From Thermoflexus sp. (lineage in GTDB: Bacteria; Chloroflexota; Anaerolineae; B4-G1; SLSP01): a stretch of 64,000 nt of DNA. The stretch's first letter is position 1. Every line of letters starts with the position of its first letter. Shown in pieces: positions 577-63,641 of this stretch. The position numbers and the translations under genes are program-made. The stretch lies in the NCBI GenBank assembly GCA_020722365.1, contig DYKY01000001.1, forward strand, positions 15,357 to 79,356, in the 5' to 3' direction. Below the pieces are notes generated by a model. It ran no database searches and was not told where the DNA came from. It saw nothing but the letters and a program-made list of their open reading frames with translations.

Positions 577-603
577 AGAACTGTAGCACCTTGAAACGAT
601 ATA

Positions 604-700
604 CCGGCCAGGGGAGCCTGAGACGCAGGCTGAGAGGGTATCCGTCAGATACCGACCCTAGAACCTGATCTGGATCATACCAGCGGAGGGAGGCGCACCC
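604..700 (+). promoter_or_regulatory. TPP (thiamine pyrophosphate) riboswitch aptamer (THI element).
   Basis: Hallmark THI-box core CTGAGA (twice) and ...ACCCTAGAACCTGATCTGGATCATACCAGCGGAGGGA, read directly in the sequence. Downstream genes are a thiamine pyrophosphokinase and a thiamine-type ABC importer. Confidence 0.8.
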
Positions 701-708
701 GATAACAA

Positions 709-2870: not shown

Positions 2871-4559
2871 GTGCCTGACAACATCGATCACGAATCACAA
2901 ATCACGAGTCGCAACTCGCAGCTCTTAACTCGCAACTCGCTCCTCGCTCTTCCCCTTCTCTTTCTCCTGCTCTTTTACTTCTACCCGTTGGGCGAAATTT
3001 TCCGCGTGAGCCTCACGTGGGACGCGGGGCCGGCGCCGGATGCGCTGCTTGCACGGCTGTTCGGCCCGGCGACGCTGCGGACACTCGGCTTCACGGCGGG
3101 ACAGGCACTGCTCTCCACGGCGCTGACGCTGCTGCTCGGCCTGCCGGGAGCTTACGTTGTCGCCCGCTACGACTTCCCCGGCAAGCGCCTGCTCAACGCG
3201 CTGACCACCGTGCCGTTCGTGCTGCCCACCGTCGTCGTGGCGGCGGCGTTCACGGCAGTCCTCGGCCCGCGCTCGCCGCTCAATCAAATGCTGATGAACG
3301 CCTTCGACCTCGCGCACCCGCCGCTCGACCTGCGTTACACGCTAGGCGCGATCCTGCTGGCACACGTCTTCTACAACTACACGCTCGTGCTGCGCATCGT
3401 CGGCGGCTTCTGGGCCAACCTCGACCCGCACCTGGAACAGGCCGCGCGCACGCTCGGCGCGTCGCCGTGGCGCGCCTTCGTCGACGTGACGCTGCCCCTG
3501 CTCATGCCCGCGCTCGCCGCCGCCGCCCTGCTCGTCTTCATCTTCTGCTTTACCAGCTTCGGCGTGATCCTCATCCTCGGCGGGCCGCGCTTCGCCACAC
3601 TCGAAGTCGCCATCTACCGCCAGGCCATCGACATGGGCAACTTTCCGCTCGCCGCCGGGCTGTCGTTCGTCCAAATCCTCTGCACCCTCGCATTGACCGT
3701 CGTCTACACCCGGCTGCAAGGCCGGCTGGCCCGTCCTCTGGAATTGCGCCCGCGGTGGATTACACAACGCCGCCCGCGCACATGGGGCGAAATCGCCTTC
3801 GTGCTCGCCAACGTCGGGCTGGGCGCGGCGCTCCTGGGATTGCCGCTCGTGACGCTCGCCGCCCGCTCCTTCGACGCCGGCCTGCGCTACTACACCGCCC
3901 TCTTCGAGAACCCGCGCGGCTCCATCTTCTACGTGCCGCCGGTCGCCGCGGTGGGCAATTCCGTCAAATTTGCGTTGGGGACGATGGCCCTGGCGCTGCT
4001 GCTCGGTGTGCTTACCGCGACGGCGCTCTACCGCCGCAAACAAGGGTGGATGCTGGACGCGCTGTTTATGCTGCCACTCGGCACCTCCGCCGTCACGCTC
4101 GGCCTGGGCTACCTGCTGGCAATGGCGCGCCCGCCGCTGGCCCTGCGCGGTACGCCCGCCCTCATCGTCTTCGGGCACACCCTTGTCGCGCTGCCGTTCG
4201 TCGTGCGCAACGTTATGCCCGCGCTGCAATCGATCCGCCCATCGCTGCGCGAGGCCGCCGCCACGCTCGGCGCGCCGCCGGCCCGCGTCTTTGCGGAAGT
4301 GGACCTGCCCATCGTCTGGCGCGCGCTTGCCGTCGGTGCAGTCTTCGCCTTCACCGTCTCCATGGGCGAATTCGGCGCCACGTCGATGATCGCCCGCCCG
4401 GAACTCCCCACCATCCCCATCGCCATTTACCGCTTCCTCTCCCAGGCCGGCGCGCTCAACTACGGGCAAGCCCTGGCGATGTCCACCCTCCTCATGGCCG
4501 TCTGCGTCGTCGGCTTCGTCGCCATCGAAAGCCTCCGCCCGCCGGGGAGCGAGTGGTGA
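2871..4559 (+). CDS. thiP: ABC transporter permease with duplicated transmembrane domains (ThiP-like, thiamine/iron(III) type).
   Basis: 562 aa with ~12 predicted TM helices and two copies of the ABC permease EAA-like loop. GTG start with a strong RBS GGGAGAGAGGGAG. Confidence 0.65.
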   Translation: MPDNIDHESQITSRNSQLLTRNSLLALPLLFLLLFYFYPLGEIFRVSLTWDAGPAPDALLARLFGPATLRTLGFTAGQALLSTALTLLLGLPGAYVVARYDFPGKRLLNALTTVPFVLPTVVVAAAFTAVLGPRSPLNQMLMNAFDLAHPPLDLRYTLGAILLAHVFYNYTLVLRIVGGFWANLDPHLEQAARTLGASPWRAFVDVTLPLLMPALAAAALLVFIFCFTSFGVILILGGPRFATLEVAIYRQAIDMGNFPLAAGLSFVQILCTLALTVVYTRLQGRLARPLELRPRWITQRRPRTWGEIAFVLANVGLGAALLGLPLVTLAARSFDAGLRYYTALFENPRGSIFYVPPVAAVGNSVKFALGTMALALLLGVLTATALYRRKQGWMLDALFMLPLGTSAVTLGLGYLLAMARPPLALRGTPALIVFGHTLVALPFVVRNVMPALQSIRPSLREAAATLGAPPARVFAEVDLPIVWRALAVGAVFAFTVSMGEFGATSMIARPELPTIPIAIYRFLSQAGALNYGQALAMSTLLMAVCVVGFVAIESLRPPGSEW

Positions 4560-10513: not shown

Positions 10514-11413
10514 TTAATCTCCTTCTATGAGCGCAGATGGAGCTACCGGTAGCGCGACCGGATGGGCAATGATCAACAACCGGTATGCCAGGCTGTTGTA
10601 AGGGTGGCATGTCACCAGGGTCAGCCGCTCATCGGCAGTGGGTAAGACATAGTGTGCGTTCTGAATGCGCACCTCAACAGGCTGCCCCGCTTCGGGAAGG
10701 AGAAGTTTCTCGGTGACTGTGTACGTGTAGGTCGCGCCATCTTCCGCCTCGATCAGGATAGTCGCGCCAACATCGAGTTTGTACAAATCGCGGAAGACCT
10801 CACCGTTCGACGTGTTGTGCCCATTCAACACGGTGTTACCCGGCGCCCCGATCTTCGCCGACGTCTCGTGCCATCCGGCCACACGTCGATGGGGAACATC
10901 CCATATCGGCTGCTTCACACCTCCAATCTCAATGTATTTCCAGCCAGTGGGGACAATCGGCGCTTCCAGGTCAATATCCGGGATGAAGAGACGCACCGGG
11001 ACAACACCCTCTTCGATGGCCTCTACTGGCAAGGTATACGTGATGACAGGGTTGGCATCTTCGGGATGCGTGTAGGGGACATAAGTTATCGTGGGGAGGG
11101 GGGTCATCTCTGGCACAAGTGTAGGTATGGCCTCTGGCGCAACAACATCCTCAACCGGCGCTTCCTCTTGGAAAGGCAATAGCGGAACGATGACTTCTGG
11201 GGTAGGCGTCACCACTACCGTGACTACCGGAGCTACATCAGAGGCGTGCAACAGCGCATCGATATTCGGCGCCAGGCTCAGGTAGCCTAGCACGATCCCC
11301 ACAAGGAGCAGGCCCGCTCCTCCCCACACTAACAGATTGACGACACTTAACCTTCTGTTATCCATATCCCCCCAACTGAGGGGTATTATAGCCGATTTTT
11401 GAGCGAGCGACAA
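10514..11413 (-). CDS. Sortase-family transpeptidase with an N-terminal TM anchor and a Pro/Thr-rich linker.
   Basis: Active-site motif LTLVTC (TLxTC) and an upstream His in VLNGHNT. Confidence 0.7.
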   Translation of the reverse strand: MSLAQKSAIIPLSWGDMDNRRLSVVNLLVWGGAGLLLVGIVLGYLSLAPNIDALLHASDVAPVVTVVVTPTPEVIVPLLPFQEEAPVEDVVAPEAIPTLVPEMTPLPTITYVPYTHPEDANPVITYTLPVEAIEEGVVPVRLFIPDIDLEAPIVPTGWKYIEIGGVKQPIWDVPHRRVAGWHETSAKIGAPGNTVLNGHNTSNGEVFRDLYKLDVGATILIEAEDGATYTYTVTEKLLLPEAGQPVEVRIQNAHYVLPTADERLTLVTCHPYNSLAYRLLIIAHPVALPVAPSALIEGD

Positions 11414-11418
11414 CTTTT

Positions 11419-11970
11419 TCAGAAGTTTTGATACACTTCAGGCTTGAGCACGCCAATGAAAGGCAGATTGCGGTACTGCTCGGCGAAGTCGAGACCATAG
11501 CCGATAACGAACTCATCCGGCACTTCGAAGCCGACAAAGTCCAACGGCACCTCAACTTGACGGCGGCTCGGTTTGCTGAGCAGCGTGGCTACGCGGATGC
11601 TGGCAGGCCTACGGGCGGCAAAGTTCCGCAAAATGTACGTCAGCGTGTTGCCGGTATCCACGATATCTTCAACAATGATCACGTTGCGCCCCTGCACATC
11701 ACTCGCCAGATCCAGCAGAATCCGCACGGTGCCCGTACTGGTCGTTCCACGCCCATAGCTGGAGATTTCCATGAAGTCGAGTTCGTGGCGGAAGGTGAGA
11801 TGGCGGGTAAAGTCGGCGAGGAACAAAAACGCACCCTTGAGGATGCAGATCAGGATGGGCAAATCATCGTCGGTGTAGATCGCATTCATCTCGGCGGCCA
11901 GCGTGACAACCCGCTCCTTGATCTCGGCTTCGGAAATCAACACTTTTTCAACATCGTCAAGTAGAGACAT
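11419..11970 (-). CDS. hpt: Hypoxanthine-guanine phosphoribosyltransferase.
   Basis: PRPP-binding motif VIIVEDIVDTGNTL and HPRT family length (183 aa). Confidence 0.85.
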   Translation of the reverse strand: MSLLDDVEKVLISEAEIKERVVTLAAEMNAIYTDDDLPILICILKGAFLFLADFTRHLTFRHELDFMEISSYGRGTTSTGTVRILLDLASDVQGRNVIIVEDIVDTGNTLTYILRNFAARRPASIRVATLLSKPSRRQVEVPLDFVGFEVPDEFVIGYGLDFAEQYRNLPFIGVLKPEVYQNF

Positions 11971-13212: not shown

Positions 13213-13318
13213 ACGAAGCTCCTGCTTATGGATTTTTACCCTGTCCTTCCCAAAGGCCACATTCGGCGGGAATACAAAACCGTGCGGAGAAGAAAACTCG
13301 TGGAAAACAGAAAATGAA

Positions 13319-13346
13319 ACGAGGCAGGGGATGTCCCCTGCCTCGT
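13319..13346 (-). terminator. Intrinsic terminator downstream of rpmE.
   Basis: GAGGCAGGGGAtgtCCCCTGCCTC stem, followed by a T-rich run on the minus strand. Confidence 0.6.
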
Positions 13347-13353
13347 CGGTAAA

Positions 13354-13842
13354 CTATGCGGCGGTTGCCATTTCCCTGGTGACTTCATCGCCTGGAAGGA
13401 TGTAGCCACGCGCGCGCAAACCCTTTTTCAGATCGGCCAGACCCTTGAGGCCCAGACCCTTGATTTCGGTCAGCCCGTCGTCGCCTTTCTCTTCCAAAAT
13501 GGCAAGCAGGTCGCCGACTTTCTCCAGACCGGCGTCGGCCAGCACTTTCTCCATCCGCCGCCCCAACTCAAGCGTGCTGATGGCCAGTTCAGGGGAAACG
13601 CGTGCGGACTTGCGCTGCTCAAGCTGCTGGAGCGCCTCTTCACGGGCTTGCAGGCGGCGCATAAAGCGATCGACCTGACCTTCGGTGTCCACGATGCGCT
13701 GCTCACCGGTGAAGTACGGGTGGCACTTCGCGCATACGTCAGTGTGCAACTCTGGCACTGTCGCGCCAATCGTCCACACCTCACCGCAAGCACAAATGAC
13801 TTTCGCCTCGGGATACCATGTGGGATGAATCTGCGGTTTCAT
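13354..13842 (-). CDS. rpmE: 50S ribosomal protein L31 fused to a ~90-aa C-terminal extension resembling the RNA polymerase alpha C-terminal domain (HhH).
   Basis: N-terminal 70 aa [38 protein letters not shown] is canonical zinc-ribbon L31. The extension [58 protein letters not shown] matches the alpha-CTD pattern (LELSVRS.N.L...GI.TVGDL....E.EL.KI.N.GKKSL.EIK..L). Confidence 0.7.
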
Positions 13843-14102
13843 GCTGCCACACCTCCTTCAGCAACGACAACGTTCACCCGCTTGCGCCCGTGGACAACGT
13901 CGTACTTGACGCGCCCATCGGCCATTGCGAAGAGGGTGTAGTCCTTGCCCATGCCCACGTTGACGCCGGGCTTGATATGCATTCCCACCTGACGCACGAT
14001 GATATTGCCGGTAATAACGGCTTCCCCACCGTATTTCTTGACCCCGCGCCGCTTGGCGCGACTGTCGCGACCGTTCGTTCCAGTTGCCTTCTTGCGTGCC
14101 AT
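13839..14102 (-). CDS. rpmA: 50S ribosomal protein L27.
   Basis: [29 protein letters not shown] is the canonical L27 N-terminus. Confidence 0.9.
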
Positions 14103-14106
14103 TGTG

Positions 14107-14421
14107 CTATGCTCCCTTCACAATATCGTCAACGCGCAGACGCATGTAAGTCTGGCGATGACCCTGGCGACGGCGATATCGCTCTTTGGGACGATATTTG
14201 AAGATGCGAATTTTGGGACCGCGGAATTCGTCCATGACGGTAGCGCGCACGACCGCGCCCTCGACCGTCGGCTGCCCCACCAACACATGCTCACCGTCAT
14301 CCAACAAATAAACCTGATCCAGTTCCACCTGTGCGCCCACCGGGTACGGAAGCCGCTCGACAATGAGGTCGCTTCCGACGCTGGCCTTGTACTGGTGTCC
14401 TCCCGATTTGATCACTGCGTA
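14107..14421 (-). CDS. rplU: 50S ribosomal protein L21.
   Basis: [17 protein letters not shown].. L21 signature. Start at the internal Met; the longer ORF-track call to 14625 is probably leader. Confidence 0.85.
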
Positions 14422-14644
14422 CACGTTTTCCTCCCTGATCCACAAGCCTATGGTCATAGGCCCTAATACAAAACATGAGCCGACCCCTTGAAGGTTCGGC
14501 TGTCGGGTCATTATAGCTAAGTCGATGAATTTGTCAAACCCCATCGTGCGAGAATGAAACACACCCAAATCAGATTCGGCAACTTGTCTTTTGGCCCTTT
14601 CGGTGTACAAAGCGTGTGATCTCATGGTTTTTACCCCTTGTTAT

Positions 14645-63512: not shown

Positions 63513-63568
63513 AGTTCCCTTCGCTATTGAGCTACAAAAAAGGTCCCGTCGACTCCGGGGCCGGAGAG

Positions 63569-63641
63569 AGCCACCCTTGGGAATTGAACCCAAAACCTGG
63601 CGCTTACGAAGCGTCTGCTCTGCCGATTGAGCTAGGGTGGC
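63569..63641 (-). tRNA. tRNA-Thr (anticodon CGU).
   Basis: Cloverleaf folded by hand: 7-bp acceptor stem GCCACCC/GGGTGGC, D-arm GCTC..GAGC, anticodon loop TTCGTAA, T-arm TTGGG-TTCAATT-CCCAA. One A:C mismatch in the anticodon stem. Candidate TTGCCA-17-TATAAT promoter upstream on the minus strand. Confidence 0.75.

Follow-up and report, generated by a model that had tools for sequence, protein, structure and literature searches.

To our knowledge, the site of ribosomal protein bL31 is the only protein-protein bridge between the 30S subunit's head and the 50S subunit's central protuberance. The protein is anchored on the central protuberance (5S rRNA, uL5), its C-terminal part rests on the 30S head (uS13, uS19), and it modulates both subunit association and head movement (PMC5137454). 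The variation in bL31 that is on record consists of a 15-aa loop in the type B protein and of short tails (PMC5137454). A literature search gave no description of a fusion between L31 and the C-terminal domain of the RNA polymerase alpha subunit (alpha-CTD), nor of a Chloroflexota ribosome structure, and the COG r-protein paper makes no mention of an L31/alpha-CTD fusion. Among the solved bacterial ribosomes, we know of no precedent for a folded, mobile domain at the bL31 site that binds a partner or nucleic acid.

The alpha-CTD is the part of RNA polymerase (RNAP) that catches promoter DNA, activators and NusA. Its surface of the R265/G296/K298/E302 type contacts the DNA backbone, and this surface overlaps the one used for the acidic NusA AR2. 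In coupled complexes of E. coli, the partner of alpha-CTD-I is NusA AR2 and that of alpha-CTD-II is NusA-N, and the docking sites of RNAP, NusG and NusA are at uS3/uS10 and uS2/uS5 (bioRxiv 10.1101/2020.03.01.972380).

Here we describe a protein in which these two elements are joined. It is encoded in a 64,000-nucleotide stretch of a Thermoflexus sp. genome (assembly GCA_020722365.1, contig DYKY01000001.1), which was analyzed as a whole and is referred to below as the window. Judged from its sequence, it is the authentic bL31 of this organism, to which a domain derived from the alpha-CTD has been added, and the combination is both real and conserved.

The rpmE fusion gene and its relatives

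The fusion is encoded by rpmE (13354..13842, minus strand, stop codon included), a single ORF of 162 aa with an ATG start that is the last of three minus-strand genes, rplU-rpmA-rpmE. The rplU gene for bL21 (14107..14424, minus strand) is of ordinary length and has a GTG start after GGGAGG, and the TGA stop of the rpmA gene for bL27 (13839..14102, minus strand) overlaps the ATG of the L31 gene as ATGA; the L31 gene is translationally coupled to rpmA within an r-protein operon. About 80 nt 5' of rplU there is a promoter-like site (14510..14537, minus strand), identified by its match to the sigma-70 consensus, in which TTGACA and TATAAT are separated by 16 nt and all 12 of 12 positions agree. 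An intrinsic-terminator-like hairpin (13318..13347, minus strand) of 13 pairs, nine of them G-C, with a T-rich tail after it, begins 7 nt past the L31 stop codon. The untranslated leader of rplU, of about 80 nt, matched no Rfam family, and the Rfam scan of the window placed no RNA family close to the operon; a TPP riboswitch at 600-708 (plus strand, 69.2 bits) and tRNA-Thr(CGT) at 63568-63641 (minus strand) were the only Rfam/ARAGORN matches in the window.

Directly downstream of the operon are the genes for thymidine kinase (TK; 12616-~13209, minus strand) and for tandem hypoxanthine/guanine phosphoribosyltransferase paralogues (HPRT; 11419-11970 and 12054-~12611, minus strand), next to which is a sortase-like gene (10514-11413), and on the other flank are divergent RadA and FtsK. 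Pfam places Ribosomal_L21p and Ribosomal_L27 at the syntenic positions in relatives, and on related contigs these two are followed in the identical order by a 162-aa L31, TK and two Pribosyltran genes. A tblastn search of the window found neither a second L31 nor an rpoA gene.

The preliminary description of this locus, made from the sequence before any database search, had taken the N-terminal part of the protein to be canonical zinc-binding L31, and this is borne out over about 65 residues. The zinc-type bL31 domain (aa 1-65; 13648..13842, minus strand) matches PF01197 (Ribosomal_L31) over aa 1-64 with 85.5 bits at a cut-off of 27, covering model positions 1-64 of 65, and it passes the NCBIfam L31 equivalogs TIGR00105 (79.7 vs 38.35) and NF000612 (83.4 vs 70). 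The zinc cysteines C17, C19, C37 and C40, in the type A arrangement CxC ... CxxC, are invariant in 57 aligned sequences, and all four are kept in every one of the 120 homologues among the matches listed. When the N-domain of the fusion model, which is predicted with moderate pLDDT, was compared with known structures by Foldseek, the top 48 matches were bL31 chains, with 44-66 aligned columns and 30-56% identity.

A full-protein search of 5.8 billion proteins returned at least 120 clusters, 157-183 aa in length and 65-94% identical. Those that have a name are called '50S ribosomal protein L31 [Anaerolineae bacterium]', and for many of the clusters there are precomputed matches to PF01197 and PF03118 together. 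An alignment of the extension only, designated A2, was used for profile and genome searches, and when one genome per GTDB species was scanned with it, 61 loci were recovered, every one of them in Chloroflexota/Anaerolineae MAGs, including Anaerolineales and Thermoflexales. L31 domain and extension form one continuous ORF in 58 of these, the other three being partial or missed by the ORF pattern used. Relative to the four closest loci (L001-L004; dS 0.4-0.8, with synonymous sites unsaturated), the extra domain has a dN/dS of 0.03-0.08 and the L31 domain one of 0.016-0.03, and in the linker helix the value is above that of both flanking domains. Because the ORF is continuous across loci and dN/dS is low, the extension is a translated and selected part of the protein. 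The suggestion of a lineage-specific extension made in the preliminary description therefore stands, in that many Anaerolineae species have kept the fusion and purifying selection acts on it; the tether to nucleic acid or RNAP that the same description put forward is a hypothesis.

The same description had raised the prospect of a frameshift or sequencing error joining two genes, and an error of this kind (frameshift, sequencing or assembly) that fused rpmE with a separate, small alpha-CTD gene could be suggested by one database record. RefSeq lists the last 79 aa of the fusion found in Bellilinea-type genomes as a protein of its own, WP_236839300.1 ('DNA-directed RNA polymerase subunit alpha C-terminal domain-containing protein'), as if there were two genes. 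However, the frame runs unbroken through the window copy and the copies of 58 independent species-level genomes, as it does through the very Bellilinea-type loci that carry the 79-aa annotation, there is no internal stop in the fusion ORF, a strong Shine-Dalgarno sequence precedes the L31 ATG only, and the sole terminator-like element sits after the complete ORF. We consider an artefact vanishingly improbable and reject it, because the ORF is intact in 58 of the 61 related loci.

The three Bellilinea-type loci (L066, L067 and L068) each have an intact fusion ORF of 158 aa, located in L066 at 3764-4240 (GCA_001306055.1, LGHJ01000013.1). The L31 part of the fusion is uncalled in these genomes, so that L31 seems to be missing from their annotation, and such under-annotation can distort both surveys of r-protein presence or absence and marker-gene sets. 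SelB is encoded nearby, and a selenocysteine/stop codon within the Bellilinea-type gene was considered and rejected, as the ORF is merely under-annotated. The fusion architecture is visible in databases as two Pfam domains, although it is uncharacterised and partly mis-annotated. More divergent L31 fusions that have the alpha-CTD-like module together with its characteristic insertion (described below) are represented by P0140, P0259 and P0261, and the P0140 subtype has the same L21-L27-L31-TK-HPRT synteny as the window. The L31 domain of P0261 (149 aa, encoded on a 4.58-Mb Chloroflexota contig) is without the zinc cysteines; the L31-CTD fusion exists on a non-zinc L31 background too.

The alpha-CTD-like domain and its origin

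Residue 64, at which the Pfam L31 model stops, falls within a long helix that is predicted by AlphaFold to span aa 53-81 and to connect the extra domain with the end of bL31 that contacts the 30S. The continuation of this helix (aa 66-83; 13594..13647, minus strand) has a pLDDT of 67-85, and it leads into the alpha-CTD-like (HhH)2 domain (aa 84-148; 13399..13593, minus strand), the assignment of which draws on Pfam, a PDB profile search, Foldseek, hhalign and BLASTP. Directly behind the domain is an L-P-G-D-(E) motif (aa 149-153; 13384..13398, minus strand), where in 57 sequences L149, P150, G151 and D152 never vary and E153 is at least 90% conserved, and the protein ends in an acidic/Ala tail of low pLDDT (aa 154-162; 13357..13383, minus strand) that terminates in ...ATAA. 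The domain core is slightly acidic (-1.8, vs -2.5 for the Anaerolineae RpoA CTD), and the tails across the family, which are 5-31 aa long and consist of one-third Glu and one-third Ala, have a net charge of about -5 (-5.3).

The tail ends in -AA in 86 of the 120 window-type fusions among the matches listed (72%), with 48 in -EAA, vs -EEITV or -EDIVV in Bellilinea-type tails (P0140/P0413). Such conserved C-terminal peptides suggest a possible docking or degradation signal. They would also be in line with an extension and -AA/acidic tail that act off the ribosome, in autoregulation of the operon, in ribosome-ribosome pairing during hibernation or as a degron for free L31, a reading that we regard as very improbable. 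In its favour, HhH domains can pair with one another, as the alpha-CTD does with NusA AR2 (10.1101/2020.03.01.972380), but a degron alone leaves the conservation of the whole domain unexplained.

The C-terminal segment had been likened in the preliminary description to the RpoA C-terminal fold pattern, and profile, fold and homology to the lineage's own RpoA CTD now agree that the extension is of the alpha-CTD (HhH)2 type. The check proposed there, a search against PF03118 (RNA_pol_A_CTD), gave a clear match for the sister fusion subtype P0140 (43.4 bits), and many close homologues of the window protein have a precomputed match, whereas the window protein itself is borderline, its match over aa 83-142 reaching 23.0 bits with the entire sequence as query and 24.5 bits with the extension taken by itself, at a cut-off of 23.8. 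The other NCBIfam matches of the extension were to the C-terminal ends of RpoA models only. Searched against all PDB sequences, the A2 profile had significant matches to RNAP alpha only (E 1.5e-6 to 1e-3, the best being Thermus 1doq), and HMMER aligned the invariant R and the G-x-G-x-K hairpin of the family with the matching residues of the alpha-CTD.

The full-length AlphaFold2 model, built from a 57-sequence alignment with a mean pLDDT of 70.8, consists of a three-stranded N-domain, the long helix, a five-helix domain (aa 88-145) and a disordered tail, in an arrangement in which the domain orientation is unreliable (pTM 0.38). Foldseek aligned the C-domain of this model with the cyanobacterial alpha-CTD 9dvt_A at a TM of 0.90 and an rmsd of 0.9 Å. 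For a domain-only model (pLDDT 64.4) the top 49 PDB matches were RNAP alpha-CTDs, the two models together giving target-normalised TM values of up to 0.87-0.90 at an rmsd of 0.9-1.2 Å, with E-values that are weak (at least 0.024) for so small a domain at a pLDDT of 64. The Pfam scan of the window fusion found PF01000 and PF01193 to be absent, and the domain instead follows bL31. Hence the extra domain is alpha-CTD-like in fold and descent and is not an RNAP subunit.

The descent of the domain can be specified further. The L31 extension aligns by hhalign with residues 251-315 of Longilinea arvoryzae RpoA at 98% probability (E 2e-13, 35% identity, one gap), and by BLASTP with the RpoA protein P0271 at E 1e-10. 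An 'EKGD' insertion of 4-5 residues between the hairpins is found in Anaerolineae RpoA CTDs and in all of the fusion modules but not in the E. coli or Thermus CTDs. A word-indexed search with the extension alone recovered the same fusion family only, and the wider module family needed an exhaustive HMMER search with A2 of 1.84 billion cluster representatives, which gave 687 matches at E <= 1e-3, with 88 at E <= 1e-10. Against so large a database ordinary alpha-CTDs do not score high enough to appear, and the matches therefore represent a closer sub-family, which takes in RpoA proteins such as P0271, with homologues named Bellilinea, Longilinea arvoryzae, Anaerolineaceae and Chloroflexota. Since PF01000, PF01193 and PF03118 are all present in each of the 120 P0271 homologues among the matches listed, RpoA retains its own CTD, which makes the L31 domain an additional copy; a relocation of the CTD from RpoA to L31 was therefore rejected. 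In the simplest reading, the extra domain of L31 would be a duplicate of the lineage's own RpoA alpha-CTD.

L31 is one of several proteins to which this module is attached. With the same 'EKGD' insertion it is found in metagenomic fusions at the C-terminus of bL21 (P0242, P0257 and P0267; Pfam Ribosomal_L21p + RNA_pol_A_CTD) and at that of bS16 (P0222; Pfam Ribosomal_S16 + RNA_pol_A_CTD), and Pfam detects the same module in the C-terminal region of NusA (P0232 and P0258). In the NusA-type proteins P0232, P0258, P0131, P0164 and P0246, one or two modules stand before a long acidic region, behind which the Chloroflexota-type NusA end in a basic/aromatic stretch (...RRRKPGRRREDWEDYY). Some of the RpoA-type proteins P0138, P0167, P0144 and P0209 have two or three CTDs in tandem (by Pfam, for example, in P0138 and P0209). 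There are also membrane proteins (P0170, P0166, P0168, P0185, P0194 and P0251) that have an N-terminal alpha-CTD-like module and a predicted membrane segment, and in P0170 this cytoplasmic N-terminal module occurs with GH18 and Ig-like domains.

A possible docking arm at the subunit interface

The residues of the L31 domain can be compared with those of the E. coli alpha-CTD, where R96, G131, K133 and D137 have their counterparts in R265, G296, K298 and E302 under an E. coli numbering that is self-consistent. The Thermus alignment from HMMER agrees with this correspondence. In the L31 family G131 is invariant and R96, K133 and D137 are each at least 90% conserved, and the second hairpin, I-K-G-[FLV]-G-L-K-A-L-A-D, resembles the canonical HhH motif. 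The other three of the seven DNA-contact positions that make up the 265 determinant are changed in the family, with what we take to be positions 268, 294 and 299 occupied by K/E/N, by G (the invariant G129) and by G/A/S, respectively. The equivalents of N268, N294 and S299 are thus not conserved, and consequently DNA recognition of the alpha-CTD type may be lost.

The site at which the domain is attached can be judged from bL31 in solved ribosomes. In the structures of the Foldseek list, about 44-50 N-terminal residues of bL31 are modelled in the 50S subunit alone and 60-69 in the 70S ribosome, a difference seen in the 50S vs 70S pairs 5o60 vs 5o61 and 5mmi vs 5mmm, and this fits a C-terminal part of bL31 that needs the hold of the 30S head to be ordered. 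It is at this place that the extension begins. From the model we infer that the helix of the fusion would jut from the top of the head and central protuberance and hold the domain about 25-40 Å or more away.

We consider it fairly probable that the extension functions as a tethered arm for ligand binding, carried by a genuine bL31. On each 70S ribosome, a helical arm of about 25-30 residues would stand at the upper end of the subunit interface and bear at its tip a mobile (HhH)2 module with an acidic tail, and the module would act as a tethered device for capture or docking, much like the alpha-CTD on RNAP or the bL12 CTD on the stalk. Candidate ligands would be the backbone of a nucleic-acid duplex (DNA or RNA) or a protein partner, such as an acidic HhH domain of the kind in NusA, or RNAP, and docking would tie the translating ribosome, or control of the head and bridge B1c, to that ligand.

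The module might instead be intrinsic to the ribosome and bind a nearby rRNA helix or tRNA (h41/h42 of the 30S head, the A-site finger or 5S rRNA) with no external ligand, thereby strengthening or adjusting bridge B1c and head swivel in the manner of the r-protein extensions of eukaryotes and organelles, an explanation that we see as possible if somewhat unlikely. In its favour, subunit association and head movement are already modulated by bL31 (PMC5137454), the family shows no variation in the GxG hairpin or at the R/K positions that backbone-binding HhH motifs typically have, and the dN/dS values of the domain and of the L31 core given above denote strong constraint; moreover, the acidity of the domain need not be an obstacle, as HhH hairpins bind backbones through main-chain atoms at any net charge. 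A docking module is nevertheless preferred to an rRNA staple because the extension, net acidic with an acidic tail, differs from the basic extensions buried in rRNA and is of a kind uncommon among rRNA-embedded extensions, because the counterparts of R265, G296, K298 and E302 are retained, and because evolution is faster in the helix and linker than in the domain, as a spacer would lead one to expect. In addition, nearly the same module is present on bL21, bS16, NusA, RpoA and membrane proteins, which points to a portable docking module rather than a site-specific staple, for which a fit to rRNA would have had to evolve repeatedly.

If the arm does dock, its ligand could lie in the transcription machinery. 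A ribosome-borne alpha-CTD that binds NusA, DNA near or upstream of the elongating polymerase, or regulators would hold ribosomes at transcription complexes or at the nucleoid, and such a link between transcription and translation, which overlaps with the docking arm proposed above, is in our estimation rather unlikely. The module is derived from the RpoA CTD, the R265- and K298-type residues are kept, and the Chloroflexota-type NusA bear the same C-terminal module (P0232, P0258); because alpha-CTDs hold NusA in the E. coli complexes, the binding of NusA or DNA by a copy on the ribosome is a concrete possibility. On the other hand, N268, N294 and S299 are not conserved, and the C-terminus of bL31 is at the top of the head on the interface side, from where an arm of about 30 residues may fall short. 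A simple copy of E. coli coupling is disfavoured because this C-terminus is far from uS3/uS10 and uS2/uS5.

Extending the argument to the other fusions, we regard it as decidedly unlikely that the alpha-CTD copies of Chloroflexota on bL31, bL21, bS16, NusA and RpoA form a shared HhH docking code that links the ribosome to transcription complexes or the nucleoid. If true, this would amount to built-in coupling or to ribosome-DNA tethering, distinct from the NusG-uS10 and NusA-uS2/uS5 bridges of E. coli, and only if the coupling reading is true would the L31 fusion be a novel kind of system. The alpha-CTD copy on bL31, together with its sister copies on bL21, bS16 and NusA, presents a testable hypothesis of a link between translation and transcription, one that would be specific to a lineage within a large and poorly studied phylum.

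Comparison with known systems

The closest relative of the N-terminal part is bL31 of type A (RpmE), and like it the window fusion is complete, has the four cysteines, passes the equivalog models and is predicted to have the fold of the 70S chains. The fusion has 162 aa where an ordinary bL31 has about 70, and the known variants of bL31 are without an added folded domain, whereas the fusion has one. With the RpoA alpha-CTD (PF03118; 1doq, 1lb2, 9dvt) the L31 domain has in common a compact (HhH)2 fold at the end of a flexible linker. The two differ in that the former is joined to the alpha N-terminal domain and the L31 copy to a ribosomal protein, in the changes at N268, N294 and S299, and in the LPGD motif and acidic tail that stand behind the L31 domain.

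NusA AR1/AR2 are, like the L31 extension, tethered acidic (HhH)2 modules on a core protein of the expression machinery, but those of E. coli have no insertion like that of the L31 module, and they belong to a transcription factor, not to a ribosomal protein. The principle proposed for the L31 arm, a folded domain on a flexible tether with which the ribosome captures ligands, is the same as in the bL12 CTD, bL9 and bS1. These have unrelated folds and positions, and the function that is demonstrated for them is inferred for the L31 arm.
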